NCBI GenBank assembly: GCA_947311625.1
Contig: CAMZKW010000002.1
Coordinates: 19,013-83,012 of the forward strand
DNA length: 64,000 nucleotides
Reading direction: 5' to 3'
Origin: Candidatus Campbellbacteria bacterium
Lineage (GTDB): Bacteria; Patescibacteriota; Minisyncoccia; Phycocordibacterales; GCA-2747955
The notes under the pieces are model-generated. The model saw only the letters and a program-made list of their open reading frames with translations. It had not been told where the DNA came from and searched no databases. A program made the translations under genes and the position numbers. This document shows positions 886 to 62,806 of the stretch, in pieces; position 1 is the stretch's first letter; each line of letters begins with the position of its first letter.

Positions 886-918
886 AAAATATATTATATC
901 ATTTTTAAATAAAAAAAA

Positions 919-1180
919 TTAAAATAAATTTTTTAGAAATTTTAATCTTTTTTTTTCTGGCATTTTTTTAATAGCGTAACGGAGAGCGATACGAGGAATT
1001 TTTTTATAGTTAGTGTGCAAAAATTCTTCGCAATTTTCCGCAAATCCGGAACACTTACACTAATAAAAATATCTCCTTTTCCGTATTCTCCCTTTCCAGT
1101 TTTAAAAAATCTTTCGTTAGCCTTTTTCTTTCTGGAGAGGAATATTTTTTTAGTTCTTTTTTAATTTTTTTAATTAACAT
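919..1180 (-). pseudogene. Remnant of a second AlkD-like DNA alkylation repair gene, with an N-terminal piece fused to a C-terminal piece plus a frameshift.
   Basis: The DNA is clearly homologous to both ends of the 3020-3751 gene. N-terminal side: ...ANERFFKTGKGEYGKGDIFISVSVPDLRKIA. C-terminal side, in another frame: EEFLHTNYKKIPRIALRYAIKKMPEKK. The middle ~150 codons are missing and there is a 1-nt deletion in an A run. Confidence 0.6.
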
Positions 1181-1360
1181 AAAATAATCTTAACATTATA
1201 AAAAAATATCTTAAACCTAAATTAATAAAATATTAATTTTATGTAAAAAAAAAACTTAACCGATATTTTTTTGATTTTCTTTATCACTCTCCAACAACAC
1301 TATTTTTAATCCTGTAAATCTATCATACAAATCATCTTTTTTAATAAAAACAAAATACAA

Positions 1361-1753
1361 CTCTATCAAAAAATAAATTATACATAAAGGAAATAGAAAA
1401 CACAAACCAAATAAAACTGATCCATATTTTAATCAAAATCTAAAAAATAAATTTCTATATACAATTATTTTTTTCTCATCTTCTTTTATACTAACTATTT
1501 TTAGCTTAACAAGCTTATAACCCAATGTTTGACCATCTTTAAAATAAAAAAATGTTTGAATCATAAAAATTATTATTGTTAATAACAAAGAAAAATAATA
1601 AATCATTGTAGATGTTTTAGAAGGTCCACTATTTGACAACCCACTTCCATCTAAAAACAAGCTTGAAATAATTAATATTATAAGAATAATAAAATATGGA
1701 GTAAAATCTATTAATCCGGCTTTTAATCTTTTTTTTAAAAAACTCTTTTTCAT
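1361..1753 (-). CDS. RDD-family small membrane protein
   Basis: ATG at 1753. The N-terminus RLKAGLIDF and the motif DGQTLGYKLVKLKIV resemble RDD domain proteins. Merged across TGA at 1435-1433 and 1366-1364; TAG stop at 1363-1361. Confidence 0.55.
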
Positions 1754-1815
1754 AAAAATATATTAACATAAAATACTCTATAATAAAAATTAAACCTTCT
1801 AATAAAATAAAATCC

Positions 1816-1838
1816 GAAATTTTGCTTCGCAAAATTTC
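1816..1838. terminator. GC-cored hairpin GAAATTTTGC-TTC-GCAAAATTTC (family 1)
   Basis: Perfect 10-bp stem directly 3' of the minus-strand gene 1867-2904, with a T-rich tract following on the minus strand. Confidence 0.7.
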
Positions 1839-1866
1839 TGCTTTTCAGATTTCCTATCCTAAAAAA

Positions 1867-2904
1867 TTATTTTATTTCCCCTTTTTCAATCAATAATTTT
1901 TTACCAACTGTGTTTTTTATTTTTGTATCCGTTGTATCTCCATGTTTTTTCAAAAATGTTTCTTCAAATTTTACAGTCCCACAAAATTGTGCAATTTTTT
2001 TAACTCCTCCTGGGTGAATAGGTAAGAACTTTGTAACATCATAAACATTTCCTTTATAAACCACTCAACAATCTGATTCGGAATTATGTTTTTTCAATTC
2101 ATCCTTAGTAATTACTCCATCTATTTCAGCTAACATTTCTTTTGCTTTTTTTCCTCCACCCATAGCCTCTTCTTCCATATGTTTTTTACCAGAATTAACT
2201 GCCTCTAACAACTGTGCCTCTGTGATATATTTTGGATTAAAATCACCACCAACTCTTTTTAGATTTCTATAAAATGCAGACATGTGATGTTTAGATTGTT
2301 TTAGCAAAGTACTATATGCTAACTTTAAATCTTTTTTATCAGTTACATTTCCATATTTTATTAAATTAGCCATATTTATATCTTCCACCATTGCTCCAAC
2401 TTCAAAAGCATCTTTATCTGATTTTTTACCTTTTTCTGTTAATTCTTTGTATAATTTTGTAAATTTAGTATTTGTAAAGACACCCTGTTCTGATTCATCT
2501 TTTACAGGATCTTCTAAATCATACCTATCAATCAACTGATCAAAAACATCCATGTGTCTATTTTCAGAAACTGGAATATTTACAAAAGCTTTTGATTTTG
2601 TAGTTTTTGATAATTCCCTATAAATATCTCTTGCCATTTTTTCTTCCTCTCTCATGTGAATAATAGCTAACTTTTCATCTTCTGTTAAAATTCCTTTTTT
2701 GAAAGTTGAAAAATCAACTGTATGTTCATCACCATGTTTATCTTTTTTTTCAAACATTTCCTCATGTTTTTCCATTGTTTCTATAGACACTTCTTTTATT
2801 TCTTCTTTTACAGAATCTACAAATTTTCCTTTGTAAGTTGAATTTCCAAAATACAATGCCGCCAAAGCAACTAAAACCACTACTACTAATATTAATTTTT
2901 TCAT
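1867..2904 (-). CDS. Membrane-anchored fusion of a DUF2202 (ferritin-like) domain and a C-terminal cytochrome b5-like heme-binding domain
   Basis: N-terminal hydrophobic anchor (LILVVVVLVALAALYF). The middle section resembles DUF2202 (EEEKMARDIY...ENRHMDVF...EVGAMVEDINM...KHHMSAFYRNL). The C-terminus HNSESDC[TGA]VVYKGNVYDVTKFLPIHPGG matches the cytochrome b5 signature (DCW...VYDVT.F...HPGG). Merged at TGA 2067-2065. Confidence 0.75.
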
Positions 2905-3019: not shown

Positions 3020-3751
3020 TTATTTTGGCATTTTTTCAATGGCATAGCGTAAAGTTGTTCTGGGAATTTTATTATAATTGATGTGCAAAAATGCTTCGCA
3101 TTTTTGTGCACTCCTTTCAGCTCTCTTCCAAACCCCTCTCAACATCCAACCAACTGCCTTATGAATTAAATCTTCTTTGTCTTCCAAAAGAATTTTTGAA
3201 ATTTTCAAAGTTTCTGAAAGTTTATTTTCCCTGATAAAAGCAAATGTTGAAATAATGGCAATTCTGCGATATCAAAGTTTTTTTGATTTTGCTAATTTTT
3301 CTAAAATTTCTTTTTTTTTCAAACCATCCAAAATAGCCTGTCCTAAAATCTTATGGGCCGAAATATCAACCAAATCTAAATTATTTACAAAAATTTTATT
3401 TTTCAAATAAAATTTCAAAATTCTTCTCTGATTTTTTAAATACAATGATTCCGGTGATACTCGGTATCTTGCAAAAAGATTTACAAGAAAAATAAGAGAT
3501 AAAAGTCGTTCCTCGCGTATCTTTGATGAAACTAATTTTTCTAAAACTGAAAAATCATTTTTTTTAATTTGAGAAAAAACCTCCGCGGAAAATTGATTTC
3601 CAATTTTCCGCAAATCCGGCACCCTAACCCTAACAAAAACATCCCCTTCTCCATATTATCCTTTTCCTAACTTAAAAAATATTTCGTTGGCCTTTTTTCT
3701 TTTAAGAGAAGAATATTTTTTTAGTTCTTTTTTAATCTTTTTTAATAGCAT
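3020..3751 (-). pseudogene. AlkD-like DNA alkylation repair protein (HEAT-repeat glycosylase family) with an in-frame TAA
   Basis: Full-length frame from ATG 3751: MLLKKIKKELKKYSSLKRKKANEIFFKLGKG*YGEGDVFVRVRVPDLRKIG...KAVGWMLRGVWKR...RYAIEKMPK. The TAA at 3658-3656 occupies the position where the paralog remnant at 919-1180 has GAA (GKGEYG). One TGA (Trp) lies at 3274-3272. Confidence 0.7.
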
Positions 3752-3784
3752 TGAATAATTTTAACAGATTTAAAAACAAAAATC

Positions 3785-3889: not shown

Positions 3890-4312
3890 TTATTTTTTAT
3901 CCTTTATTAAACAAGCACAAGGACAATTTAGACCTTCAATTTTTCCAATTAATTCTCCATCATAATTTGTTTCGCCGAGAGTATTAAAAACTTCTCCACC
4001 TTTAGCTGCACAATCTTTTTCTTTTATTACATTTGTTGGCAATTCTATTGTATTACTTTTTATTGGTATAAAATCTAACTTTGGTTTAGACTCTGGACAT
4101 TTTGCAAATTTACAATTTGGACCAGTTCTACCTACAAAAGTACCATTGACACATAATTTTACTTCCTGTGTGCAAATTTTACCATTTCTTTGATTATCAT
4201 AACTGGTCTCATTATTATTAATAATTGGTTCTATCTGGTTATTATTTTTATAAATTAAATATCCGCTAATCAAAATTACCAATGCCACTAGTCCTAAAAT
4301 TATTTTTTTCAT
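3890..4312 (-). CDS. Small secreted or anchored Cys-rich protein (hypothetical)
   Basis: 140-aa uninterrupted ORF with an N-terminal hydrophobic segment and 9 Cys. An extended -10-like AGTTATAAT (4327-4319) sits 6 nt upstream of the ATG. Confidence 0.5.
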   Translation of the reverse strand: MKKIILGLVALVILISGYLIYKNNNQIEPIINNNETSYDNQRNGKICTQEVKLCVNGTFVGRTGPNCKFAKCPESKPKLDFIPIKSNTIELPTNVIKEKDCAAKGGEVFNTLGETNYDGELIGKIEGLNCPCACLIKDKK

Positions 4313-4350
4313 AAATTTATTATAACTTTTTTTAATTAAAAAACAAAAGC

Positions 4351-4411: not shown

Positions 4412-5050
4412 TTATTTTAAATCTAAATAAGATATTTTTTGAAATCCGTCTCTATTTTTATCAATAAAATCATTCAACAAAATGATATTTTCTACATCTT
4501 TTTCTCTATCTTTATTAAAACTTGATTTAGAATTTTTATCAAATTTACCAGGATGGAACAAAATAGTAACACTACCATCATCTAATTTAGAAACTAGCTC
4601 TTTAATTTCTTCAAAAGTTTTAAAGCTTCCAGTTATCTTTTTATGAGTAGTTGTTAATTTATTTTTATCACCATCCAGATTTCTATAAAAAATATTATTT
4701 TTTATAGAAAATTCTTTTATGGATTTTTGACCTTCCTCTCTATAAGAATATTTATGCATATCTAAAAATACTGGCTCAAAATCAAAGATTTCTATAAATT
4801 TTTTATATTGTCTTTCAATTTCGGAATAAAAACTTGTTTTTTTTAAATCAATATTTTCAAAATCAACATGTAACCCCAATCTGTTTGGATATTTTTTAAT
4901 TTTTTTAATCTGTTCTTTTTGATTATCTTGTATATAATCAATCATGATGGATACGCTATCAATTTTATTATCTTCTAATAAAAATAATATACTTTCATTA
5001 AATACTTTTGAATAACCAAAATCATCAGCGTTAATAATTATTTTTTTCAT
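4412..5050 (-). CDS. YdjC/ChbG-like carbohydrate deacetylase family protein
   Basis: The N-terminus MKKIIINADDFGYSKVFNESI matches the YdjC family start (iiNADDfG.s..vn). 212-aa intact ORF. TGTTATAAT (5065-5057) lies 6 nt upstream of the ATG. Confidence 0.65.
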   Translation of the reverse strand: MKKIIINADDFGYSKVFNESILFLLEDNKIDSVSIMIDYIQDNQKEQIKKIKKYPNRLGLHVDFENIDLKKTSFYSEIERQYKKFIEIFDFEPVFLDMHKYSYREEGQKSIKEFSIKNNIFYRNLDGDKNKLTTTHKKITGSFKTFEEIKELVSKLDDGSVTILFHPGKFDKNSKSSFNKDREKDVENIILLNDFIDKNRDGFQKISYLDLK

Positions 5051-5181: not shown

Positions 5182-5295
5182 TTGTGTCGGCGAATAGTTA
5201 CTTTCCCAATAAATAGTATCATCACCAGTACTGGACTTAACTTCTGTGTGCGAAATGAGAACAGGTGTACCCCCAGTCTCTAATCACCAACACAA
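5182..5295 (-). rRNA. rrf: 5S rRNA
   Basis: The terminal helix pairs TTGTGTTGGTGA with TCGCCGACACAA. An internal block CACACAGAAGTTAAGTCCAGTACTGG resembles the conserved 5S loop region. It lies ~150 nt downstream of the 23S 3' end. Confidence 0.85.
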
Positions 5296-5449
5296 AATAT
5301 CTTTTTTTTGAATCTATTGACTCAATGGTAAACTCAAATAAAATTTAAATTTACCATTGAATCAACAATTAAATATAACAAGTGCAGTTTGTATTCCAAC
5401 AAAAAGGTTACCAGAAAGTGAATCACTTTCTTGAAACTTTCTAATGAAA

Positions 5450-8856
<3,407 letters not shown>

Positions 8857-9186
8857 TTTCATCAGAAAATTTCAAAAATATGATTCTCAGTTTTAATAAA
8901 TTAAAACTGAATTAATAAGCCATCTAATCCGAAACCTGTATCAACTAAATAAATTTAATTGATAAGTTCTCTTACTTAAATGTTTATGTTTTTTTACGAG
9001 TAACCTTTTTGTTTTTTTTAACTGTTTTTTTTACTGTATGTAAAAATAATAATTATTTTTTCAAGTGTCCAATATATAAAATATATTATAATTAGACTCA
9101 ATGAAAATACAAATTGTTACCTGTTATATTCAATTGTCAAAGTTCAATACTCCAAATAAGAATTACTTCAAATTTGCAGTGGGAGT

Positions 9187-9215
9187 ATTATATATTTTTT
9201 CATTTTAAAAGTCAA
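9187..9215 (-). promoter_or_regulatory. Canonical sigma70-type promoter TTGACT-N17-TATAAT upstream of the 23S-5S unit
   Basis: Minus strand: TTGACT (9215-9210), a 17-nt spacer, then TATAAT (9192-9187). It lies about 330 nt upstream of the mature 23S 5' end with no gene in between. Confidence 0.6.
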
Positions 9216-9294: not shown

Positions 9295-9936
9295 CTATTT
9301 TTCAATTTTTTTTATCCTGTAATGGCCCACTAATTCTGTTGGTCATATATCTATAATATCTGCTAATTGAACACCTCTGCCATGATTAGATATAACATAG
9401 GGAATGCCGTCACTTCTTCTCAGGGAGGATATAACTGCGATGTGATCTTTTCAAATAATCAAATCACCACCCTTTCATTCTTTTAAATATTTTTTGTCAA
9501 ATGATAAAGGTAAACTTTTTTCAAATCTTTTAAAATAAATATTTAAATTTTTTGCTCTTCTAAAATTTATATTTATATCTGGACTGTCTCTATATAATTT
9601 AGGATGTTTTTTAATATCATTAAAAACTTTTTTTCTTAAATCATAGCCTAAGGATTTTAATGCATCTCCAACTACATCTGTGCATACCCCAGTACTTTTA
9701 TCCAGTGGCCTACCGGAGTTATAATATCTCTGAGAAAAATCATAGGTTATAACTTTTCCAATTTGTTTCTTTGCTTCTCTTTCTAAAATATTTTTTGGTT
9801 CATTTTTGTATCTTATTTCTGTAAAATAGTTTATTATTTTATTTATTTTTTGTGGTTTTATATTAAAATAAGCAAAAGTAAGGACCCCGAATAATAAAAC
9901 AAATAAACCAATCATAAATAAAAATATTTTTTTCAT
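9295..9936 (-). CDS. DUF1287-like secreted or anchored protein
   Basis: N-terminal TM segment. Family-like blocks are GVCTDVVGDALKSLGYDL, INFRRAKNL and GDLII[TGA]KDHIAVIS...SNHGRG. Merged at TGA 9477-9475 and 9453-9451; TAG stop at 9297-9295. TGTTAAAAT (9951-9943) lies 6 nt upstream of the ATG. Confidence 0.6.
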
Positions 9937-10008
9937 AAAATAATTTTAACATATTAAAAAATATTTTTTAATAAAAAAAACATATATATGTTTTTTTTAT
10001 ATTTTTTG

Positions 10009-10090: not shown

Positions 10091-10152
10091 ATACAAAGTA
10101 AAAAGATTATAACATTAAATATTTAAAAATCAATATATGTTAAAATTACCTT

Positions 10153-10833
10153 ATGAATAAAAATATATTACATTCTGGAATTATATGAATAGCTTCAGGA
10201 ATATTATTTATAATCTATGAATTTTTAAATATATATTTCGATCTAAATATTCCTGGATTAAAAGAGATTATAAATTTACTTAATAACTCACCTGATTATT
10301 TAATTTTTATAATATCTTTTTTGGTTATGTTTATTGAAGGACTCTATATATTGGGAAACTTTTTTCCAGGCTCAAGTATTATTATTACAATAACATCTCT
10401 TAGTCAATACGATGGAAATGGAAAATTTATTTTAATAATTTTTATAATATTCCTATCATGAACATCGTCTGGCATAATAAATATGTGGATAGCTAAAAAA
10501 TATAAATATATTTTAGAAAAAAGATACCCTCCTAAAAAAAATAAAATATTTATGGTAAAAGATAATATTTTGGGTACATGGTTTCCATCATTTCGTTCTA
10601 ACTACGAGGTATCCCAAATACTTGAAGGCGGTATATTTTCTGAAGTATTAAAATCTTCTCTTCGTGTAAAGTTTTTTATTAGTATTATTATGGGTTTAAT
10701 ATCTTATTCCATTGCTATATTATGAGATGTGAAAAAAATTGATGATAATGAAGGATTAATTTTTACCATATTTATCTCTATAATTATGATAATCGTTGGG
10801 GTAAAAAAAATTAAAGATTATAAAAAATCTTAA
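10153..10833 (+). CDS. DedA/VTT-like polytopic membrane protein
   Basis: ATG at 10153. FIEGLYILGNFFPGSSII resembles the DedA motif. Merged at three in-frame TGAs (10186, 10459, 10723); TAA at 10831. Confidence 0.5.
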
Positions 10834-11135: not shown

Positions 11136-11537
11136 TTAATTTTTTAATTTATCTATTTTTTTATCTTTTACAATGTCTTTCACTTCTCCAAGATAAAAAC
11201 CATCTGGTGTTGCAATAAATAATTTTGCAGTCCCTCAATATCCCTGTATTTCCCTAGCCACTGAAACTACTCCTCTTAGGTCAAGTCTATACTTTACCTC
11301 AATCAAACAAACTTCATGGGTCTTATTATTGACAACAACAAAATCAGGAGATTTTCTTAACAAATCTAATGTTTCTGTTTGTATTTTATTATCTGTTTTT
11401 AGAACCTCTGGTGTTGTGTGTTCGTAACCAAAACGTAAAACATTAAATAAGTATTTATTATCAAATTTTGCATTTCTAAACATTTGTTCAAATATTGTTT
11501 CTGCTATCCTACCTTTTATTAACATATCTGTATTCAC
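11136..11537 (-). CDS. Small PD-(D/E)XK nuclease-fold protein (hypothetical)
   Basis: 133 aa merged at TGA 11237-11235. The motif SPDFVVVNNKTHEVCLIEVKYR fits D...E-x-K of the restriction-endonuclease-like fold. Confidence 0.45.
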
Positions 11538-11653
11538 CCCTAAATTATATCAAAAAAGATGGGGTTTTTGAAGTAAAGACCTGATTTTTTTATCCTATAT
11601 TTTTATTATAAAACTGATAAGTTTAAAAAAAATAAATTTTAAATAAAAAACTA

Positions 11654-16457: not shown

Positions 16458-16949
16458 TTAGTCGATTATTTCTCTATAGGGATCAACTATTCTTTCTTCT
16501 GCTTTTTTAACTATCACCTTATTAAATTTATCTTTAAATGATAGATTATCATCAGCTCTTTTTTCTATATCATCAATTAACTTTACAACTTCTTTATCAT
16601 CAACTTCTTTTTCTAAATTATCTATAAGTGCATGGCCTTCATCACTTACAACAATTTCTCTCACTTTTTTAAAAATTAATTCATCAACTTTTTTTGATAT
16701 TGTTGTAGCATTAGAATGACTAACTTGTAACTCTTCTTCTACGACTTTTACAAAATTATTTATAGAAATAATATTTAATAATGTTAATCCAACTATCCTA
16801 ATTAAATTATCTATTTTATCAATTCTTAAATTCAAATCTTTACCAATTTCACCACAACTATTCGCTACTCACACATCATCTAATATATCTCTTATATTAG
16901 CTGAACTTTTTTCATATGCTTTTTCTATTTCTTCCACTGTATATTCCAT
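16458..16949 (-). CDS. Acidic, probably helical 163-aa protein (hypothetical)
   Basis: ATG at 16949 (MEYTVEEIEKAYEK...). One TGA. It sits between the giant ORF and the tail-fibre-like gene on the same strand. Confidence 0.45.
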
Positions 16950-16989
16950 ACTTCCATTATAACAAATTTAAAAATAAAAAAATAGATTT

Positions 16990-19900: not shown

Positions 19901-20535
19901 TTAACAATAAGTTTATCTTTTGATATTAAAAATGGTTGCATTACTTGAGCAACATCTGCAGTATTGTTATTCCCATCACCGCTGGTAGCTGTTGTATTAT
20001 CATCACCTAAGGTGTTACTAGGTTCACTTTCTTCATCTTTCACAATATTATATGTATAGACCCCATCTTCCCCATCATCTTCAACAATAAAATTACCAAC
20101 AATCCTATCTATGTCTTTCGACAAATCCACCTTTGTGGAGGTAATTTTTAAGTTTTTAACTTTTTCATTCAAATCATTAACATTTATATTTAGTATTTTT
20201 TCTTTATTAGTTGATTTTTCTATTACTTTTATTGAATAAATGCTTACTCTTTCAAAATCTATACTTGGAGTATTAACAATTAAATCTTTTTTATCTTTTA
20301 TTTTAAATCTGAAATTATCTACGAAACCATCTTCTAAAACAAACTCAGCTCCTACATTTCCCATATCTGAAAAAGTTCCGATTTTTGTCCCATTCTCAAC
20401 ATTTTCATTAACTGAATTATTATCTAATACAATACCATTATCAACATCTTCAGCGTATATAAAACCTGTAAAAATACCTGTAAATAACAATAAGGCAAAG
20501 AACAAAGATTTTTTTTTTTTAATTTTTTTTTTCAT
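16990..20535 (-). CDS. Giant secreted or surface protein (1181 aa). It has an N-terminal signal, cadherin-like repeat region, a hydrophobic segment, a Cys-rich region and a long uncharacterised C-terminal part.
   Basis: The four listed ORF pieces (19759-20535, 18562-19077, 18043-18486, 17185-17439) share one frame. I translated every gap by hand and found only TGA codons. The stop is TAA at 16992-16990. The N-terminus is KKKSLFFALLLFTGIFTGFIYA. Cadherin-like blocks include ENGTKIGTFSD...FRFKIKDKKDLIVNTPSIDFERVSIYSIKV. Confidence 0.8.
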
Positions 20536-22334: not shown

Positions 22335-22343
22335 TAAAATATT

Positions 22344-42230: not shown

Positions 42231-42284
42231 AAAATAATTTTAACATATTTTTGATTAAATAATTTTCCTTGCCAGTTGAAAATA

Positions 42285-42293: not shown

Positions 42294-42299
42294 ATTAAA

Positions 42300-44076: not shown

Positions 44077-44085
44077 TGTTAAAAT
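44077..44085 (+). promoter_or_regulatory. Extended -10 TGTTAAAAT, 6 nt upstream of the gpmI ATG
   Basis: Sequence match; the spacer is TATTTT. Confidence 0.5.
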
Positions 44086-44091
44086 TATTTT

Positions 44092-48854: not shown

Positions 48855-50417
48855 TTAATTTAAATTAATTTTTTTCTTTTTTTCAAAATAAGCTTTAATT
48901 TTTCTTTTTGCAGTATTTGTTTTTACAAAATCTAATCACTTTATATTTGGAAGTGCATCTTTTTTTGATTGTATTTCTACGATATCACCATTTTCTAATT
49001 TTGTACTCAATGATTTAAAATCATTATTTATTAAAGCTCCTGTGATTTTAAAACCTAAATCAGTATGAACCATGAAGGCAAAATCTATCGGAGTTGATTC
49101 TTCTGGTAAATCTATAACATCTCCATTTGGTGTAAAAACAAAAATTCTATGGGTAAAGAAATCTTCTCCAAGTTCTGATTCAATTCTTTTCAAATCTGTG
49201 TCTAAATCATTTTCACTCGTTTCTGCTAGTTCAGATATTCATTGATGATTATTATTTTTAGAATTATTATTGCAACAATCTTTTTTTAATTTATTATCAT
49301 CTTCTTTTGTATTTTTAAAAATATTAATTAATTTATCAAATCAATCTTTTTCTCTAGATTTATTGTTTTCAGATTCATCTTTATATCCTATATGAGAAGC
49401 GGCTCCAAGTTCTGCTTCTTCATGCATTTCTTCAGTTCTTATTTGTATTTCTATAATATTTCCATCTCCAGTAAAAACTGTTGTGTGAATAGATTTATAG
49501 CCATTTGGTTTAGGGAAGGCAATATAATCTTTAATTCTTCCAGGCATCGGTCTATAATTCTGATGTATAATACCAAGAACTTCATAGCAATTTTTTATAT
49601 CCTTAACGACTATTCTCACGGCTGCGACATCATAAACCTTATTTAAATCCCATTTTTTTCTTTTTAGTTTTTTATATAAAGAATAAACTCCTTTTATTCT
49701 GTAGGTACTTTTGAAATCTATAATATTTGATTCTCCCAGTTTTCTCTTTATGGATTTGATTACTTTCTCTAATTTATTTAAAGTTTGTTTTTTTCTAATT
49801 TTTAAAATTTCATTAGTTTTTTTATATGCTTCTGGATAGACATGGGGGAATGATAAGTCTTCTAGTTTTTTAGAAAAAGTGGTTATTCCGAGTCTGTAGG
49901 CTAGAGGTGCATAAATATCTAGAGTTTCTGTAGCAATCCTCAATCTTTTTTCAGGACTAACGTATTTTAAAGTTTCCATATTGTGAATTCTATCGGCAAA
50001 TTTAATTATTGCCACTCTAATATCTTTTGATGTGGCAATAAAAAGTTTTTTTAAAGATTCGTTATGCCTCTTCATTCCTTGATATCTAACTTTTCCAAGC
50101 TTAGTGACTCCATCAACTAAAAAAGCAATTTCATCACTAAACTTTTCTTTTAATTCTTTCTCAGTGGCCACACCATCTTCTACAGAATCATGTAATATTC
50201 CAGCAGCAATGGTGGGTGCATCCATTTTTATTTCTGCCAAGTTTTTTGCAGTAGCAACAAGGTGTATAAAGTAAGGTTCTCCTGATTTCCTTTTTTGTTC
50301 TTTATGTGCCTCCTTGGCAAAAAAATAAGCTTTTTCAATGATTTTTTTATCTTCATTTTTTAAGTAAGATGCTATGGAAAAAATAGAATCTAAATCTTTT
50401 TCATTTTTAATTAACAT
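48855..50417 (-). CDS. RelA/SpoT-homolog (p)ppGpp synthetase/hydrolase: HD domain, synthetase domain and TGS domain
   Basis: The HD domain carries HLVATA...GILHDSVED. The synthetase domain carries YRIKGVYSLYKKL...DVAAVRIVV...GYKSIHTTV...EIQIRTEEMH. The TGS-like domain carries IFVFTPNGDVIDLPEESTPIDFAF. Pieces are in one frame across TGAs; TAA at 48857-48855. Confidence 0.88.
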
Positions 50418-50529
50418 ATATTTATAATAACAAAAATATTATAAAATTAAAAATAAAAATTTAGTTGATTTTTTTATTAAAATAAAGTATAATATGCACA
50501 CTATTTTAATAGATATTAAATAAAAATAT

Positions 50530-50796
50530 ATGGCAATTACAAAATCAGCAAAAAAAAGAATAAGATCTTCTGAAAAGAAAAGAGTTTTTAATTTGAGAAA
50601 ACTTAGATCAATGAAAGAATCTATAACTTCTTTTTTAAAAGATATAAAAGAAAAAAAAGTGGAGGATGCAGAAAAAAAATTACCAACTGTTTACAAAGCA
50701 ATTGATAAAGCTGCTCAAAGAGGTGTTATTAAAAAAAATAATGCTGCTAGAAAAAAATCAAGACTTACAAAAAAAGTTGTTGATTTAAAAAAATAA
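50530..50796 (+). CDS. rpsT: Ribosomal protein S20
   Basis: MAITKSAKKRIRSSEKKRVFN... is an S20-type N-terminus. 88 aa, intact. Confidence 0.88.
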   Translation: MAITKSAKKRIRSSEKKRVFNLRKLRSMKESITSFLKDIKEKKVEDAEKKLPTVYKAIDKAAQRGVIKKNNAARKKSRLTKKVVDLKK

Positions 50797-51026: not shown

Positions 51027-51065
51027 AATAATTTAATTATATCACATTATGATATAATTTATTAT

Positions 51066-51749
51066 ATGATTGACGATTTAAGTAATAAAAAAATTTTAAT
51101 ATTTTCTGACACTCATTTAAAATGTAAATTTGATAAAAAATGATTTGATAAAATTAAGTCTTTAATTATGGAAGCTGATAAAATTATTATTAATGGTGAT
51201 TTTTGAGAAAATATATCTTGTCCTTTTGATAAATTTATTAAAACAGAATATAGGGAAAAGCTTTTTCCTTTGTTAAAAAATAAAACTATTTTAATTCACG
51301 GTAATCATGATAGTGATAAGTATATAAAAAATAATGAGGATTTAAAATTATTTAGCTTAGAAAACTATAATTATTATGAATTTAAATCTGGTGATAAAAT
51401 ATTTCATTTAAGGCATGGACATATTTTAACTAAAAATTTTAAATCTTGAAGAAATGATATTATACTTTTTTTAAAATACAGGATTAAATGATTATATTTT
51501 TTCATTAAGAAAAGAGAAGGGTATTTTAGTTGGTTTTTAAATAAAATTGGATTGAAAGTAATAAATATATTTAAAAAATTCTCTTTAAAAAATTATCATA
51601 AAAATAAAATTTTTATTTTTGGTCATATTCATTTACCAAAACATAATTTAGATGATAATTTTTTAGTTTTAGGATCTTTTAAGTCTGGAGAGGCAAGATA
51701 TATCTTTATAGATAATGGAAAAGTAGAATTTCATAATGAAAAATATTAA
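51066..51749 (+). CDS. Calcineurin-like metallophosphoesterase
   Basis: Family blocks are ILIFSDTHL, INGDF[TGA]E, IHGNHD and GHIHLP. Merged across several TGAs. TGATATAAT (51050-51058) lies 7 nt upstream of the ATG. Confidence 0.75.
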
Positions 51750-51766: not shown

Positions 51767-53011
51767 TTATTTATTTTTTTCTAAAATTCTATCAATGGCA
51801 ATTTTATGAGCGGCTAACCTTCAAGGAAGTTGTCTTTCTTCAGCTAAACTCTTTACTTCAAAATAAGCCTTCAAAATTTTATCCTTTAATTTTTGATTAA
51901 CTTCTTCCAGGCTTCAATGTTCATTTTTTAAATTCTGTTCTCATTCAAAAACAGAAACAATAACCCCTCCAGCATTAGCTAAAAGGTCTGGAATTATGGA
52001 AATATTTTTTTCTAATAAAATTTCCTCAGCTCTTGGACTAACTGGTCCATTAGCTAATTCTACAATTTCCTTTGTCTTAATTCTCTCTGCATTTTCAAAA
52101 GTTATAACATCTCCCAGAGCAGCTGGAATTAAAATATCAACTTCTAATTCCAATAATTTTTCATTGGAAATTTTTTCTTCATCTTGAATTTCTGAAAGTC
52201 TTTTTTTTCTTTCTTCTCTATAAACAAAATTATAAATTTTTTCAATATCTAAACCTTCTGAATTATAAATTCCAGTTTTTGAGTCTGAAACTGCAATAAC
52301 TGTGTATCCAATATTGTGTAAAAGTAGAGCAATGGTTCCGCCAGCATTTCCAAAACCCTGAACTGCAATTTTAATTTCTTGTTTATTTTTAACCTCTTTA
52401 TATTTTTCTTGAATAATATAAAATGCCCCCATAGCAGTGGATTTATCTCTTCCTTCTGAACCACCATCTTCAATTTTCTTTCCTGTAATAAATGCAGGGT
52501 TTTTACTTTCAGTAATTTTATCATATTCATCCATCATTCAACCCATTATTTCAGGGGTGGTATTAACATCGGGAGCTGGGACATCAATTTGTGGTCCTAA
52601 ATAATTAAAGAATTCTTTAACATAGCCACGGGATATTTTTTCTAATTCTGTTTTTGAATAATCTCTTGGGTTGATTTTAACTCCACCTTTAGCACCACCA
52701 AAATTCAAATCAGCCAAAGAATTTTTTAGAGACATAATAAAGGCTAATTCTGAAACTTCTGACAAATTTACATCCTGGTGGAAACGAATTCCTCCTTTTC
52801 CTGGTCCTCGGTTTCCATTGTAAAGAACTCTAAAAGCTTCAATAATTTCAATTTTTCCATCATCTCTAATAATAGGAAAATGAGCTTCTAAAATTCTACG
52901 AGGATTTTTAAAAATTTTTAATTTTTCTTCATCAACTAAATTTGTATTGTGTAATTTTTCTAATTCACTTTTGCAAGCAGGACAAATTACTTTATCTTTT
53001 TCTGTGTACAT
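51767..53011 (-). CDS. gdh: Glutamate dehydrogenase (Glu/Leu/Phe/Val dehydrogenase family)
   Basis: Family blocks are GPGKGGIRFH, GGAKGGV, PDVNTTPEIMG[TGA]MMDEY, VQGFGNAGG, NAGGVIVSVFE[TGA]EQN and H[TGA]SLEEV. Confidence 0.92.
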
Positions 53012-53065
53012 AATTTTTATATTATATACTTTTTTTTAAAAAAAAAATAGTATAATAATATTATT

Positions 53066-53872
53066 ATGAAAAATTTAAGTATAAAAGAAATCTTTTCTGT
53101 AGCTTGAAAAGATACTAAAAAAAATTGATTATTCTTTTTAGGTTTTTTGGTAGTTTATGTGATTATAGGTATTATAGATGGTATTTTTGGATATAGAATA
53201 GATCCTGTTACAAATATAAGTTATGGATCATCAATTTTAAGTATATTAATTCAGTTAATAATGGTCTATATAAGTGTGGGGTTAATATTAGAAACTTTAA
53301 AAATTGTTGATGGTAAAAGACCTTCTGTGAAGAATATTTTTAATTGACCAAAAGATTGAAAGCATTTATTAAGATATTTTGGAGGATATATTGTATATTC
53401 TTTAATTATTATCCTACCCATTATAATTTTATTGATTACTTTATTTAGTAAATTAAATTTTACAAAAGTAATCCCCGTAATGTTTATCGTTGGTGGTATT
53501 ATTTCTATAATAATTTCTGTGTATATGGGATTTGCTTATTATCTGATGGCTGAAAACAGAAATGGAATATTTTCAAATATTTTAAAATCTTTTAAAATGG
53601 TATCTGATAATTTATGAAAAGTTGTAAAATGATATATCTCTGCTATTTTAATATTTATACTGCCTCTAATTACTATCGGTGTAATTTCAGGGGGAATAAT
53701 ATCACTAACAGGTGGTTTTGGAAGATATCCATCATATTCTGAGATAGGAGTATTTCTTGTAGGCGGATTATTAATTTTGGTTTTATTTATAATTACTATT
53801 CCATGAATTATAGTTTCATTTGGTCATTTATATAGGAATATTGATTCAGAAGTAAAAAGAGTTGATGAATAG
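53066..53872 (+). CDS. Polytopic membrane protein (DUF975-like architecture), hypothetical
   Basis: 268 aa merged across about 9 TGAs. It has multiple TM helices and no catalytic motif that I recognise. Confidence 0.4.
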
Positions 53873-56394: not shown

Positions 56395-57267
56395 TTAAAA
56401 ATTTTTATAAATTTTTCCTAAAGATTCTTTTATCAATCCTTTAATTTCTAGAATTGAAATTTCTATTCCAAAAGTTCCTACATCTAAACCGCTTTCTTCT
56501 AGAAGTTCATTTTTTGTTTTTGGTTCTCCAAGTTTTTTTAAAATAATTTTTTGATTTTCCGATAAATCATCAAAATTTAATTTTTCCTGTTTTACTTCTC
56601 CCGTTAAATTTAAAATTTCTAAGATATCTTTACCAGAAAAAATTGGAATAGCACCTTCTTTCAAAAGTTTATTTGAACCAGCAGAATATTCTGAAAAAAT
56701 TGAATTGGGAATAACTGCTAAATCTTTGTTGTAATCTAGGGCTAAACGAGCAGTAATTAAAGTTCCAGATTTTTCCTGAGCTTCCACCACTAAAACCAAA
56801 TCAGCTATTCCGGCCATGAGTCTATTTCTTTGAGGAAAGAAGTAGGGCATTGTTTTGGCTGAATTTTCAAATTCTGAAACTAAAATCCCATCGTTTTCTA
56901 AAATATTTTTAGCTAAATTAAAATTTGATTTAGGGTATAAAACTTCTGGATTTAAACCGGAACCTGGAAAAGCGATGGTTTTTAAATTATTTTCCATGGC
57001 TTTTTCATGAGCCAATGTATCAATTCCCAAAGCTAAACCGGAAATAATAACAATAGGTTGGCCTGAAATTTCTTTAAAAATTTTTTCTAATGCATTTTTT
57101 GAATAGGAGGAGTGTCTTCTGGAACCAACAACGACAATAAATTTAAAATCATTTTTATTAAAAAGTTTTCCATTAAAATTTATTTTTTTTGGTAAGTCAG
57201 GTATTTCCAAAAGTGGTTCAAAAATAGTGTTTTTAAATTCTTCTTTTTTGATTTCTTGAATTTCCAT
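56395..57267 (-). CDS. dprA: DNA processing protein DprA
   Basis: Family blocks are VVGSRRHSSY, ISGLALGIDTLAHEKA and AQEKSGTLITARLALDYNKDLAVIPN. TGATATAAT (57282-57274) lies 6 nt upstream of the ATG. Confidence 0.88.
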   Translation of the reverse strand: MEIQEIKKEEFKNTIFEPLLEIPDLPKKINFNGKLFNKNDFKFIVVVGSRRHSSYSKNALEKIFKEISGQPIVIISGLALGIDTLAHEKAMENNLKTIAFPGSGLNPEVLYPKSNFNLAKNILENDGILVSEFENSAKTMPYFFPQRNRLMAGIADLVLVVEAQEKSGTLITARLALDYNKDLAVIPNSIFSEYSAGSNKLLKEGAIPIFSGKDILEILNLTGEVKQEKLNFDDLSENQKIILKKLGEPKTKNELLEESGLDVGTFGIEISILEIKGLIKESLGKIYKNF

Positions 57268-57365
57268 AAAAAAATTATATCATAAATATGCTATAATTTT
57301 TTTATGAAAAAAGAAAATTATATTATTTGGGTTTGTTTAGAATTAAAGCTTTATAAAAAAGAATT

Positions 57366-57824
57366 ATGAGAGAAGTAGGTAAAAAATTTATGAGTTTAGC
57401 TATAAAAGAAGCTGGGAAATCAATTTATCCATTTGGTGCAGTTTTAGTTAAAGATGGAAAGATAGTTACTAAATCAGGTTCTGGTGAAAATAATGAATTT
57501 GAGCCAGCAAATCATGCTGAAATTAATGTAATACGCAAAGCATTTCAAAAAAACAAGAATAGAGATTTAAAAGGGAGTATTTTGTATACAACTTGTGAGC
57601 CTTGTCCTATGTGTTTTTCAGCTTCTTGATATGCTGATATTGACAAAATAATTTATTTATTATCTATAGAAGAATCATCTAAATTGTTTTATCCAGAGAT
57701 AAAAATTAGTATTAATGAACTTAACAAAAAAGGAGATAATAAAATTAAAATTGAAAAATGCGGAGATCCTAATTTGAAAAAAGAAATTATAAAAATATAT
57801 AAAAAAGAATTATGGAAGAAATAG
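57366..57824 (+). CDS. CMP/dCMP-type zinc deaminase family protein (TadA- or guanine-deaminase-like)
   Basis: HAEINVI and TCEPCPMCFSAS[TGA]Y are present. The start is uncertain (57366 or 57390). Confidence 0.7.
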
Positions 57825-58502: not shown

Positions 58503-58700
58503 TTAAGCTTTTGTAACTTCTACAGCTGATGGTCCTTTTTCACCATCTACAACTTTAAAATTAAGTGCATCACCTTCTTTTAAAGCTTCAAAGTCTCCAT
58601 CAAATTCATTGATGTGGAAGAATAAATCTTTATCTTCTCCTTCTCTAGAAATAAATCCAAAACCTCTATCTGTAATTTTTGCTACTGTTCCTGTTTCCAT
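58503..58700 (-). CDS. cspA: Cold-shock protein (CspA family)
   Basis: METGTVAKITDRGFGFISREGEDKDLFFH carries the RNP1/RNP2 motifs. Confidence 0.9.
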   Translation of the reverse strand: METGTVAKITDRGFGFISREGEDKDLFFHINEFDGDFEALKEGDALNFKVVDGEKGPSAVEVTKA

Positions 58701-58844
58701 ATTTTTATGTAATTAGGTTGATAATTTATCAAAACCAAATTATATAAAAAAGTAAAAAACAAGTTTATAAATTCAATTCGATAAACAAAGTATAACACAT
58801 ATTTTATATAAATGGTAGGTTAATTATTTATAATTTTATTTTTT

Positions 58845-58853
58845 TGATATAAT
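58845..58853 (+). promoter_or_regulatory. Extended -10 TGATATAAT, 6 nt upstream of the tgt ATG
   Basis: Sequence match; the spacer is ATAAAA. Confidence 0.5.
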
Positions 58854-58859
58854 ATAAAA

Positions 58860-60140
58860 ATGATAAAAAAAAGAAAGGATTTTTTTAATTTTAAAATTGA
58901 AAAAAAATTAAGAGATAAAAATGGAAAAGAATTTTTGGGTAGAGTGGGTGGATTTGAAACTGCTCATGGAATAATTAAAACACCAGCCTTCGCCACTGTG
59001 GGAACTAAGGCAGCCATTAAAGGTTTGACCGTAGAGCAGTTGAAGGAAATTAACCCAGAAATTTTTCTTGCTAACACCTACCATCTGTTTTTAAATCCTG
59101 GTCCGGAAATTATTAAAAATCATGGAGGACTTCATAAATTTTCTCGCTGGGATGGACCAATCATGACCGACTCAGGAGGTTTTCAAGCCTTTTCTCTAGG
59201 GGCTGCTTTTGGAAAAAATATTTCTAAAATTGCCAAAGATGACACTGATTTTATTCAGACTAAAAAAAATGAAAACAAAACCGGATTTGCTAAAATAACA
59301 GAAGATGGGGTGGCTTTTAGGAATTACAAAACAGGGGAGAAACTATTTTTCTCACCGGAAAAATCAATGCAAATTCAACAGGATTTAGGAGCAGATATCG
59401 CATTTGCTTTTGATGAGTGTACTTCGCCTCAAGCAACCTATGAATACCAAAAAGAAGCCATGGAGAGAACTCACCGTTGAGCTATTCGTTCTTTGGAAGA
59501 GCATCAGAAATGAGAAAAAAAGAAGGAAAGTTTTTTGGAAAAAATAAAAAACAAAATTCAAAAAAATGAAGTTTATCCCCAGGCACTTTTTGGAATTGTT
59601 CAAGGTGGTAGATATGAAGATTTAAGAAAAGAATCAGCAGAATTTATTGGAAGTTTAGATTTTGATGGATTTGGAATTGGTGGTTCTTTTGATAAGGATG
59701 ATATGGATAAGGCCGTAAGAGTCGTCAATGAAAAACTACCAGAAAATAAACCAAGACATCTTTTGGGAATTGGTGAACCCATTGATTTATTTATGGGTGT
59801 GGAAAATGGAGTAGATTTTTTTGACTGTGTTGCTCCAACTAGAATGGCAAGACACGGAGCACTTCATACAGAAAATGGAAGGTTGAATATAAAAAATGCT
59901 CAGTATAAAAATGATATGAAACCCATTGATGAAAAATGTCAGTGTTATACCTGTCAAAATTATACTCGTTCATATGTAAATCATTTAATTAGGGAAGGGG
60001 AGATGTTAGGTATGACTTTAACTTCAATTCATAATTTATATTTTATTGTAAATTTGGTTAAAAGAATAAGACAAAGTATTTTGGAAGATAATTTTTTTGA
60101 GTTTAAGGAAGAATTTTTGAAAAATTATTATAAAAAATAG
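58860..60140 (+). CDS. tgt: Queuine tRNA-ribosyltransferase
   Basis: Family blocks are TPAFATVGT, ANTYHL, MTDSGGFQ, FAFDEC, GIVQGG, GFGIGG and the zinc site CQCYTCQNYTRSYVNHL. Two pieces are joined via TGA 59478 and 59511. Confidence 0.93.
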
Positions 60141-60174
60141 TTTTTTTCTTTTTTAATTTTGTTATAATAAAAAA

Positions 60175-60657
60175 ATGAAAGTATTAGCAATTGACCCAGG
60201 TTATGAAAGGCTTGGAGTGGCGGTTATTGAGAAAGAAAACGGAAAAGAAAAATTAATTTTTTCTGATACATTTAAAACATCAAAGGAAGATAAATTTATA
60301 GATAGAATGTTTCAAATAGGGCGGGAAGTAGAAAAAGTGATTGAAAAATATCATCCAGAGTTTTTTTCCATTGAAAAATTATTTTTTAATAATAATCAGA
60401 AAACTGCAACAAATGTTTCAGAGGTGAGAGGTTCTTTAATCTACATTGCTCTAAAAAATAAAATGAAGGTTTGCGAATATACTCCTTTACAAATTAAAGC
60501 TGCAGTTACAGGGCAAGGTAGGGCAGATAAAAAGCAGGTAATGTTTATGATAGACAGACTTATTAAAATTGAAAAAGAAATTGAATATGATGATGAATAT
60601 GATGCCATAGCCTGTGGTTTAACTTTTTTTGCAACATACAGAGAAAATAATTTATAA
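60175..60657 (+). CDS. ruvC: Crossover junction endodeoxyribonuclease RuvC
   Basis: MKVLAIDPGYERLGVAV..., FSIEKLFF and DEYDAIACGL are present. TGTTATAAT (60160-60168) lies 6 nt upstream of the ATG. Confidence 0.88.
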   Translation: MKVLAIDPGYERLGVAVIEKENGKEKLIFSDTFKTSKEDKFIDRMFQIGREVEKVIEKYHPEFFSIEKLFFNNNQKTATNVSEVRGSLIYIALKNKMKVCEYTPLQIKAAVTGQGRADKKQVMFMIDRLIKIEKEIEYDDEYDAIACGLTFFATYRENNL

Positions 60658-60692
60658 TATTATTTTGAAATTTTTTCTGTTTTTTTAAAAAA

Positions 60693-60713
60693 GTGGCGCG
60701 CGGAGCGCGCCAC
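60693..60713. terminator. GC hairpin GTGGCGCGC-GGA-GCGCGCCAC (family 2; reverse complement of 25261-25281)
   Basis: Lies between convergent ruvC and rnr. A T run follows on the minus strand. Confidence 0.8.
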
Positions 60714-60725
60714 CACAATACAATT

Positions 60726-62738
60726 TTATTTAACCCCTTTTTTAAATTTTTCAGATGATTTTTTAGATTCTAATTTTCCAGTGTATTTTAAATCAATGGC
60801 TTTCATATTTAAATCAACTTTTTCAACTTCCGTTGTTATTCTATCCCCAAGTCTAAAAACTTTTCCAGTTCTTTCTCCAACTAAAGTCATATCTTTTTCA
60901 TTATATTTAAAGTAATCATCACCAATGCTTCTTGCAGGTATTAATCCTTGAGCCATATTTTCAGTATTTTCCACAAAGATACCAAATTTTTTAATTCCAG
61001 AAATAACTCCATTAAATTTTTCTCCAATTCTTACGGAATAATATTGAGCAAATTTAAATGCAATAGATGCTCGTTCTGCATCAACGGCTTTAACTTCCAT
61101 TTCCGAAGAATGTTTTGCATCGGAAGCAATTTGTTTTAATTCAGATTGAGGAATAATTTCGCCTTTTAAATATCTCCTTAGAAGTCTGTGGGCCACAAAA
61201 TCTGGATATCTTCTAATGGGTGAAGTAAAATGAGAATAGTAATCAAATGCTAAACCAAAATGCCCTCTGGCTTCAGTTGAATATTTTGCTTTTTCCATGG
61301 ACCTTAAAAGGGTTAGTGAAATAATACCTTCCTCATCAGTTCCTTTGTATTTTTCCATGGCTGAATTTATCTCTCGAGCATTCATAGAGCCATCATGGTT
61401 TAAATCAACATCATAGCCAACTTTTTTAAGAAATTCGATGGATTCATGCATTTTATCCTGTTTTGGTTTATCGTGAATTCTATAGATAAAAGGATTTTTT
61501 GTTTTTAAACCTGCTTTTAATGATGCTCTCATGGAGACCCTTTTATTATCTAAAAGCATAAATTCCTCAATAAGTTCCATGGTTCTCACATGAGGTTTTA
61601 CATAAATTTCCGTTGGAAATTTATCTTTATCTAGTTTGAATCTAACCTCCTTTGAGTTAAATTTTATGGAACCATTTTTATATCTTTTTTCTTCAAGTTT
61701 GTCTGCCATGTCCAGAAGAATTTTTAAATCATTGTACATGTCTCCAAAACCATCATCGAGAGTTTTTTGAGCCTGCATATAGTCATATCTTTTTTTAGAT
61801 ATAATAACAGCATCACCAAATCATTCATCAACAACTTCACCATCGGGTGTCATTTCAAAAAGTGATGAGAAGGTTAATTTTTCTTCATTGGCATTTAGAG
61901 AACATAAATCATTTGATAAAACCTCGGGAAGCATTGGTATTGTTCTATCAACTAAATAAATAGAGGTAGCTCTTTCTTTAGCTTCTTTATCGATTACAGA
62001 ACCTGGCTTCACAAAAAATGAAGGGTCGGCAATATGCACTCCAATTTCAATATTTCCATTTTCTAACTTTCTAGCTGAAAGGGCATCATCAAAATCTTTA
62101 GCATCGGAAGGATCAATGGTAAAAACATTTAAATGAGTTAAATCTCGTCTAATTTTTTTTTGCTCCTCGATCATTTTTACAGAATCTTTTTTTAGTTTTG
62201 CTGCTGCTTCTTCAACTTCATGGGGAAATCCCATAACCAAACCTCTATCATATACTGCCGCTGCCATTTCAGTTTCATTGTCTCCAACTTTTCCTAAAAC
62301 TTTTTGGATAATAACTTTAGCTGGATGTTGGGCATTTTTTCATTTATCTAATTTTATTACAATTTTTTGACCCTTTAAATTTTTGAATTTATCAAAGTTT
62401 GTTATTTCAACTTCAGGATAAAAACGAGAATTATCGGGAATAAATTTTAATTCTTTAATCTTTTTTGCACCATTATCTCCTTTTTTTGGTTTAATTGATT
62501 TTTCAACTTCATCAATTCTTCCAACAAATATCATTTTATTTCTTTTTGTGATTTTTAAAACAACACCAGTTTCTTCTTTTCATTTATTTTTTCCAGTAAT
62601 GGAAATTTCAACCGTATCTCTATCGAGAGCTTTATTTAAATCTTTTTTATCTATATTTACAAAGGAACCATCAGCTTTTTCAAAAAAACCATTTCCTTTT
62701 GCATTTGTTCTAATTGAACCAGTTAATGTTTTAGTCAT
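60726..62738 (-). CDS. rnr: Ribonuclease R (RNB family 3'-5' exoribonuclease with C-terminal S1 domain)
   Basis: The RNB domain carries FTIDPSDAKDFDDALS, YLVDRTIPMLPE, HFGLAFDYYSHFTSPIRRYPD and S1-like FNGVISGIKKFGIFVE. The pieces are in one frame. ATG at 62738, with TGTTATAAT (62753-62745) 6 nt upstream. Confidence 0.92.
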
Positions 62739-62806
62739 AAAATTATTATAACATTTTGAATGATAAAAACCGAAAATATTTTTTTAAATTTTAGTTTTTT
62801 ATTAGA

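Follow-up and report, generated by a model that had tools for sequence, protein, structure and literature searches.

A sigma-70 extended -10 box adjoining the start codon predicts leaderless transcription of many genes in a recoded Parcubacteria genome that lacks the anti-Shine-Dalgarno sequence

Box-led gene starts in the window

The stretch of DNA analysed here (the window) comprises 64,000 nucleotides of a Candidatus Campbellbacteria bacterium and corresponds to positions 19013-83012 of contig C2 of the assembly labelled G000 (624 kb in 22 contigs, 92.6% complete, 27.4% GC). The organism is a Parcubacteria-type bacterium of the Candidate Phyla Radiation (CPR) with a genome of roughly 0.62 Mb and 27% GC, which reads UGA as tryptophan. 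Numerous genes on both strands of the window are opened by the same element, a box of the form TGnTAnAAT (TGNTANAAT) separated from the start codon by a short spacer, most often of 6 nt. The sites of the window and the genes that they precede are as follows.

883-901, minus strand: TGATATAAT-N7-ATG, P-type ATPase N-terminal fragment (370-885)
1751-1768, minus strand: TGTTAATAT-N6-ATG, imperfect -10, RDD-family protein (1256-1753)
3749-3766, minus strand: TGTTAAAAT-N6-ATG, DNA alkylation repair gene with an in-frame stop after codon 31
4310-4327, minus strand: AGTTATAAT-N6-ATG, no TG, hypothetical protein of 140 aa
5048-5065, minus strand: TGTTATAAT-N6-ATG, YdjC-like protein (4412-5050)
9934-9951, minus strand: TGTTAAAAT-N6-ATG, DUF1287 protein (9295-9936)
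10138-10155, plus strand: TGTTAAAAT-N6-ATG, hypothetical protein of 226 aa (10153-10833)
11535-11552, minus strand: TGATATAAT-N6-GTG, hypothetical protein of 133 aa
14355-14372, minus strand: TGATAAGAT-N6-ATG, degenerate -10, IS200-like Y1 transposase
16947-16964, minus strand: TGTTATAAT-N6-ATG, hypothetical protein of 163 aa
21449-21466, minus strand: AGGTAAAAT-N6-ATG, no TG, TSP3-repeat surface protein
22265-22282, minus strand: TGATATAAT-N6-ATG, SpoU/TrmH rRNA methyltransferase
22326-22346, plus strand: TGTTATAAT-N6-ATT-ATG, spacer 9, predicted 3-nt leader AUU, RecG helicase
25197-25214, minus strand: TGCTATAAT-N6-ATG, hypothetical protein of 190 aa
28678-28695, minus strand: TGTTATAAT-N6-ATG, RNase H
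31867-31884, minus strand: TGATATAAT-N6-ATG, N6 DNA methylase (restriction-modification)
32293-32310, plus strand: TGTTATAAT-N6-ATG, HI0933-like flavoprotein
36927-36944, minus strand: TGCTATAAT-N6-ATG, beta-propeller / peptidoglycan-binding protein; the box picks the second in-frame ATG (36929)
37927-37944, plus strand: TGATATAAT-N6-ATG, family-2 glycosyltransferase
40175-40192, plus strand: TGTTAAAAT-N6-ATG, M50 peptidase
42228-42245, minus strand: TGTTAAAAT-N6-ATG, hypothetical protein of 217 aa, divergent to the promoter of the lysyl-tRNA synthetase (LysRS) gene
42285-42302, plus strand: TGTTAAAAT-N6-ATG, LysRS; the N-terminus matches solved LysRS from residue 13
44077-44094, plus strand: TGTTAAAAT-N6-ATG, cofactor-independent phosphoglycerate mutase (iPGM)
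50415-50432, minus strand: TGTTATTAT-N6-ATG, imperfect -10, RelA/SpoT
51050-51068, plus strand: TGATATAAT-N7-ATG, T before ATG, metallophosphoesterase
53009-53029, minus strand: GTATATAAT-N6-ATT-ATG, spacer 9, glutamate dehydrogenase
53048-53068, plus strand: TAGTATAAT-N6-ATT-ATG, spacer 9, hypothetical protein of 268 aa
53953-53971, plus strand: TGGTATAAT-N7-ATG, SecD
57265-57282, minus strand: TGATATAAT-N6-ATG, DprA
57289-57306, plus strand: TGCTATAAT-N6-ATG, small open reading frame of 24 codons, back-to-back with the DprA box
58845-58862, plus strand: TGATATAAT-N6-ATG, tRNA-guanine transglycosylase
60160-60177, plus strand: TGTTATAAT-N6-ATG, RuvC
62736-62753, minus strand: TGTTATAAT-N6-ATG, RNase R

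All 19 sites listed in a preliminary description of the window are among them; two have an imperfect box (1768-1760, TGTTAATAT; 4327-4319, AGTTATAAT) and three a 7-nt spacer (ATG at 885, 51066 and 53969). The GTG start at 11535-11552 is one of only two among the 192 exact-box open reading frames (ORFs) of the genome.

Abundance and spacing of the box

ORFs were called from stop to stop, without a trained gene model, at a minimum length of 100 codons and with TGA taken as sense. This resulted in 566 non-overlapping ORFs, and the genome-wide counts cover genes of 100 codons or more. The window contains 21 copies of TGNTANAAT-N6-ATG, compared with 0.51 +/- 0.78 (maximum 4) in dinucleotide-preserving shuffles. 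The box alone is present 68 times where 30 copies are expected, so that its excess essentially equals the ATG-linked copies. Both strands of the 624-kb genome contain 695 boxes, of which 192 have an ATG at spacer 6. Boxes with no ATG link number ~420, close to the ~390 expected by base composition, and therefore nearly all surplus boxes are those linked to an ATG.

The linked ATGs are those of genes: 164 of the 192 spacer-6 ATGs open an ORF of at least 100 codons, as against 11.7% of random ATGs. Before the first ATG of long ORFs (n=512) the exact box is found 152 times at spacer 6, 15 times at spacer 7, 8 times at spacer 8 and 27 times at spacer 9, whereas only 1 of 2327 internal in-frame ATGs is preceded by it; 165 of the 192 exact-box sites lie at exactly 6 nt. 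The peak at 6-7 nt thus far exceeds the AT-rich background against which the preliminary description had proposed to check it. Alignment of the 60 nt upstream of first ATGs demonstrates the same element as T-15, G-14 (38% versus 13% background), T-12, A-11, A-9, A-8 and T-7, together with T at -1 in 70%.

A position weight matrix was refined on the data, and a box scoring above threshold 4-11 nt before the start was taken as strong. Such a box is carried by 243 of 551 ORFs (44%) and by 0.25% of the internal-ATG controls; the spacer is 6 nt in 177 of the 243, 7 nt in 18, 8-11 nt in 47 and 4-5 nt in 1. The score distribution is sharply bimodal and the count hardly shifts between thresholds 4 and 10, which means that boxes are either near-perfect or absent.

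Promoter identity of the box

The logo of the element, wTaTGnTAtAAT, is the sigma-70 extended -10 consensus of the TRTG type, with T at 0.98 and G at 1.00 in positions -15 and -14. In the leaderless promoters the match to a -35 element is no better than in an off-register control, a weak preference for T being seen at -35/-34. The primary sigma factor (contig C6, 10380-11468) is complete and has Sigma70 regions 1.2, 2, 3 and 4, including region 3, which contacts the TG.

The box is not restricted to translated genes. It is situated at most 60 nt upstream of 17 of the 32 tRNA and transfer-messenger RNA (tmRNA) genes, ~4% being expected per gene (~1.3 genes in total), and often 8-16 nt from the mature 5' end, from which precursor 5' leaders of 1-9 nt are predicted for RNase P. 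The window has one example:

10091-10114, minus strand: TGTTATAAT box, 15 nt upstream of the mature 5' end of tRNA-Leu(UAG)

Among genes that start less than 15 nt behind a co-directional gene 3 of 63 have the box, compared with 52-67% of genes with upstream space of their own. The box is also unchanged (TGnTAnAAT) in relatives with other 16S rRNA tails (GGAAUUCUUCCGAA, GGAACAAUUUCAU, GGAGUUUCAAUUU). Its presence before tRNA genes, its lack before coupled genes, its sigma-70 consensus and its tight spacing identify it as a promoter and not as a ribosome-binding site (RBS). According to GeneMarkS-2, a motif confined to the first genes of operons marks promoters (group C), while a motif before both first and internal genes marks a non-Shine-Dalgarno RBS (group B) (PMC6028130). 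The present genome shows the former arrangement, with the motif limited to operon-first genes, and not the latter, in which the same motif lies inside leaders before first and internal genes alike.

Predicted transcription start and start codon

Of the promoters, 86% have A as the 7th base downstream of the box and 60% have T just before that position. At spacer 7 the additional base is T in 17 of 17 cases, so that the 7th base is a pyrimidine and the 8th is the A of ATG; R-ATG, which would give a 1-nt purine leader, is found in 0 of 17. At spacer 8 the 7th base is again a purine, with AT-ATG in 10 of 12, which predicts a 2-nt leader; at spacer 9, where ATT-ATG accounts for 22 of 35 and the 7th base is a purine, a 3-nt leader is predicted. 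The latter sites form an in-frame secondary peak and are compatible both with a 3-nt AUU leader and with initiation at AUU, Met being the second codon. In E. coli a Y-R-Y start element centred 7 or 8 nt after the -10 captures the transcription start site (TSS) in 93% and 79%, respectively (Kuo et al. 2025, PMC12641261). The T-A-T(G) found 7-8 nt after the -10 is such an element, and the TSS is therefore predicted on the A of ATG.

Of the 192 box-defined ATGs, 178 are the first in their ORF. Pfam domains begin a few residues behind the box-defined start (residue 3 in RuvC, 4 in RNase H, 3 in YdjC and 5 in iPGM), and the box-defined ATGs are good protein starts.

Genes with other arrangements

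The 551 ORFs were distributed over the following classes.

Strong box, spacer 6-7: 195/551
Strong box, other spacers: 48/551 (47 at 8-11, 1 at 4-5)
TAnAAT without TG, spacer 5-10: 35/551
Coupled to the upstream gene: 60/551
Shine-Dalgarno (SD)-like sequence: 36/551
Strong box only further upstream: 55/551 (leaders of 6-237 nt, some by chance)
No class: 122/551

A promoter is recognisable for 333 units, and 278 of these (83%) are leaderless or have a leader of at most 5 nt. The preliminary description had called the arrangement near-universal and the mRNAs predominantly leaderless; at 44% of ORFs the first wording is too strong, while the second agrees with the share of recognisable promoters. 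Coupled genes have a TAA 1-14 nt before their ATG (mode 4 nt) and no SD, which fits termination-reinitiation. An example in the window is secF, which starts 1 nt after the SecD stop, coupled, with neither box nor SD.

Several units of the window have promoters of another kind:

9187-9215, minus strand: 23S-5S rRNA, TTGACT-N17-TATAAT, ~320 nt upstream of the unit
34094-34135, minus strand: rpsP, TTGACT-N17-TAAAAT ending 10 nt before ATG
40938-40993, plus strand: rplS, TTGCAA-N17(tGg)-TAAAAT, leader of ~18 nt, no SD
50465-50532, plus strand: rpsT, TTGATT-N17-TATAAT, leader of ~30 nt, no SD
58698-58744, minus strand: cspA (58509-58700), TATAAT, leader of ~32 nt

The 23S unit, rplS, rpsT and cspA have -35/-10 promoters, and the leaders of the three protein genes (18-32 nt) are A/U-rich and SD-less. 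These four had been correctly named as exceptions with real leaders; rpsP, named with them, is not a real exception because its predicted leader has only ~4 nt.

The absence of SD sequences, also part of the preliminary description, holds for the box genes, none of the 192 exact-box genes having an SD-like 4-mer in -20 to -3, and does not extend to ~36 genes elsewhere. These have AAAGGAG 5-9 nt before the ATG, contain no in-frame TGA and are of higher GC (0.30-0.42); examples are located at C1:26683, C2:89201, C5:37313 and on contig C12. By these features they look like recent imports from standard-code donors.

Ribosome and genetic code

The usual 3' tail of bacterial 16S rRNA is GGAUCACCUCCUUU. 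In the present genome it is GGAUUAUUUCAAAG, with no CCUCC in the tail and no CCTCC in the next 180 nt. The anti-SD sequence, for which inspection of the tail had been suggested, is thus lost, and SD pairing is unavailable. Ribosomal proteins uL1 and uL30 gave no Pfam match in the 92.6%-complete genome while controls matched, though in an incomplete genome this is not proof of absence; bS21 gave a sub-threshold match only. The 23S rRNA has 3419 nt compared with 2925 nt of the model, with ~500 nt of insertions, and the 23S-5S unit (window 5185-9215, minus strand), with its own TTGACT-N17-TATAAT promoter, is unlinked from the 16S gene (C14:33686-35257). The failure to find uL1 and uL30, the 23S insertions and the unlinking of 16S and 23S are all typical of CPR bacteria.

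Under table 11 the genes of the window are fragmented and coding density is 0.66; with TGA as sense it rises to 0.88. In a tRNA(UCA) at C1:62943-63014 the acceptor (A1:U72/G73) and the anticodon stem are those of the adjacent tRNA-Trp(CCA), and the four TGA codons of the LysRS gene align opposite W, F or Y of solved LysRS structures. TGA is therefore assigned to Trp and not to Gly. Code 25 is ruled out by the same two observations. Reassignment of UGA to Trp in two Minisyncoccia (Parcubacteria) lineages was published in 2026 (PMC13695967).

Distribution in relatives

A 16S sequence exists for four genus relatives; three share the G000 tail unchanged, and one has a single change, outside the tail. 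CCUCC is missing in all 23 readable tails of the order (G000 and 22 relatives) and is kept in 8 of 19 tails of a class-level sample. The exact pattern was counted as follows.

G000: 192
Genus relatives: 43-111
Rest of the family: 36-75
Other families of the order: 2-38
Class sample: 2-27
Reversed-pattern control: 0-5 (0 in G000)

In samples of 60-200 kb a family member shows a clear spacer-6/7 peak (~30% of starts), two other anti-SD-less genomes a weaker one and an anti-SD-bearing genome none. A genus relative has the box before 14 of 20 orthologues of box genes as against 1 of 7 orthologues of no-box genes; a family relative has it before 17 of 55 orthologues of the G000 box genes, and an anti-SD-bearing class member before 0 of 15. 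These comparisons are based on small samples and on a matrix trained on an AT-rich genome and should be read as indications only. They suggest that the leaderless layout is spread through the class at a low level, with a strong expansion in this family.

One genus relative (G005, C1:1-60000) gains no coding density with TGA as sense, yet has 111 box-N6-ATG sites. Since it shows no sign of TGA recoding, the layout appears to be independent of the code change.

Particular sites of the window

Divergent genes stand down to 36 nt apart, ATG to ATG, each with its own promoter, which shows the degree of intergenic compression. In the closest pair, DprA and the small ORF (57265-57306), the back-to-back leaderless promoters have their boxes 6 nt apart; in the LysRS pair (42228-42302) the ATG-to-ATG distance is 69 nt. 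The 24-codon ORF (57289-57378, plus strand; MKKENYIIWVCLELKLYKKELWEK) overlaps by its end the ATG (57366) of a box-less dCMP deaminase gene, and may be a leaderless upstream ORF which brings ribosomes to that gene by coupling. About a dozen similar tiny ORFs are present genome-wide.

The product of the gene starting at 885 is limited to 171 aa, the N-terminal part of a P-type ATPase, and a separate ORF (2-358, minus strand) comes next; the gene at 370-885 may be split or decaying. The DNA alkylation repair gene (3020-3766, minus strand) has a perfect box, and its Pfam match picks up again right after the in-frame stop. This may reflect a pseudogene, an error in the assembly or read-through of the stop. 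The 1181-aa ORF at 16990-20535 is a surface protein, and its identity as RpoB was rejected.

Proposed mode of gene expression

Most probably (we put it at about 0.85), the box is the extended -10 element of the housekeeping sigma-70 promoter and ~44% of the genes are leaderless, RNA polymerase starting on the A of ATG. The exact 5' ends and the mode of ribosome loading, which we infer, go beyond the observed motif, spacing, statistics, tRNA-gene boxes, anti-SD loss and complete primary sigma factor. RNA polymerase would start 7-8 nt downstream of the box, so that the mRNA would begin with AUG or, for a minority of the genes, with no more than 3-5 nt of leader (AU-AUG, AUU-AUG). On first genes ribosomes would capture the 5'-terminal AUG directly by the 70S/IF2/fMet-tRNA route of E. 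coli, mycobacteria and Deinococcus. Operon-internal genes, with their ATG 1-14 nt after the upstream TAA, would be served by termination-reinitiation, and a few strongly expressed genes (rRNA, rplS, rpsT, cspA) would use -35/-10 promoters and SD-less leaders, probably via protein S1.

[quoted passage not shown] The module count is 36-192 in genus and family versus 2-38 elsewhere in the order. This proposal is tentative, and we rate its chances at slightly below even.

Several observations weigh against the main reading. The class-level motif count does not track loss of the anti-SD, and some anti-SD-less genomes have few sites; as a predictor of the count, anti-SD loss fails in a 40-genome class sample, and leaderless initiation is for this reason not a general explanation for all anti-SD-less Parcubacteria. 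Initiation factor IF3 and a three-domain S1 are kept, hence leadered initiation is not abolished. The placement of +1 on the A of ATG is a prediction from promoter geometry. Furthermore, 22% of ORFs belong to none of the classes, and for 10% the only strong box lies further upstream; these may in part be miscalled starts or spurious ORFs, and the margins on the true leaderless share are wide, about 44-60% of genes. Finally, the good AAAGGAG sites of ~36 genes are unexplained in a genome with no anti-SD, unless these genes are recent imports.

Alternative explanations

The box might instead be a non-SD RBS that has co-evolved with the altered 16S tail, the mRNAs having leaders. This had to be taken seriously because the new tail is partly complementary to the box: UGAUAUA of the mRNA could pair with 5'-UAUUUCA-3' of the rRNA at 6 of 7 positions. 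The 6-nt distance to the ATG suits SD spacing as well, and genomes with non-SD RBS motifs are recognised by GeneMarkS-2 as group B. An RBS, however, does not account for the same box before 17 of 32 untranslated tRNA and tmRNA genes, and its occurrence at 3 of 63 operon-internal genes is the reverse of the group B definition. Moreover, the box is the universal sigma-70 extended -10 consensus, remains constant in relatives whose 16S tails differ, and is spaced far more tightly (165 of 192 at exactly 6 nt) than SD sequences are. We consider the RBS explanation very improbable.

Somewhat less improbable, although still unlikely, are real promoters whose TSS varies by a few nucleotides around the A, giving leaders of 1-5 nt or starts inside the codon, with ribosomes guided by a different signal, for instance a downstream region rich in A. 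RNA polymerase is not absolute in its choice of TSS (PMC12641261), and the 47 genes of spacer classes 8-11, with a purine at the 7th position and predicted leaders of 2-5 nt, conform to such variation. Yet spacer 6 accounts for 177 of the 243 boxes and spacer 7 for 18, spacings that put Y-R-Y on the A of ATG; at spacer 7 in the first-ATG set, T stands before ATG in 17 of 17 and R-ATG in 0 of 17. That AT-rich composition, or duplication of a promoter cassette across the genome, produced the pattern has a negligible chance of being true. At 27% GC TGNTANAAT alone is indeed expected ~390 times in the genome and 30 times in the window, but shuffles give 0.5 ATG-linked copies against the 21 observed, internal ATGs 1 of 2327, and the reversed pattern 0 in G000. 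The copies differ in flanks and spacers, have no -35 and share no upstream sequence; the sites are therefore not repeats of a cassette.

Comparison with known systems

Gram-positive bacteria such as B. subtilis and S. pneumoniae have a "-16 region" or extended -10 (TRTGnTATAAT) with which the -35 is dispensable, their mRNAs being leadered and SD-containing. The present wTaTGnTAtAAT shares the consensus and the dispensable -35 with these promoters and differs from them in its predicted leaderless, SD-less mRNAs.

Tsurumaki et al. (2022, PMC9297842) found an anti-SD in only 48% of Parcubacteria, with a loss that overlaps the uL1-less group, and left the initiation mechanism open. The present genome resembles that group in having no CCUCC and in that uL1 and uL30 were not found. 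The word "leaderless" is not mentioned there, and the layout described here gives a concrete candidate answer to how Parcubacteria without an anti-SD start translation; in a small class-level sample it is much weaker in several other anti-SD-less genomes. In the open-access literature we found no paper on leaderless mRNAs in Parcubacteria (matches for CPR, Patescibacteria and Gracilibacteria were irrelevant) and none joining a leaderless layout with anti-SD loss in them, which is not proof that none exists. The practical use is twofold. Gene finders of the standard kind, which expect SD and code 11, perform badly on such genomes; in these recoded, poorly annotated sequences the box allows start codons and transcription units to be called by a sharp, almost binary criterion. 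The compact extended -10/leaderless module could also be tried for expression in CPR co-cultures or cell-free systems.

Leaderless genes with a -10 box beside the start codon were described by Zheng et al. (2011, PMC3160421), and GeneMarkS-2 placed 1028 of 4769 bacteria in group C, with 25-50% of operons leaderless (Lomsadze et al. 2018, PMC6028130). As in TA-led or group C genomes (Actinobacteria, Deinococcus-Thermus), a Pribnow-type -10 is situated 6-8 nt before operon-first starts and is missing before internal genes. In contrast to that group, the extended -10 is near-invariant here (TG 97-99%), with no -35 and 27% GC, start codons are almost only ATG, and the share (44% of ORFs, ~83% of recognisable promoters) equals or exceeds the highest values reported for bacteria. 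The remaining genes of group C genomes use SD, whereas here the 16S has no anti-SD and internal genes no SD. The mechanism is thus known from other phyla and is unusually dominant and regular in the present genome, which is an extreme case among group C-type genomes.

The haloarchaeon Haloferax volcanii (PMC3986360) is similar in that most of its transcripts are leaderless and the leadered ones mostly lack SD; for the present genome the same is predicted from sequence. Haloarchaea differ in their archaeal TATA/BRE elements ~26 nt upstream, in their archaeal initiation factors and in keeping the anti-SD in 16S rRNA. If the proposal of a lineage with no SD pairing is true, this would be the first bacterial clade with gene expression organised like that of haloarchaea.

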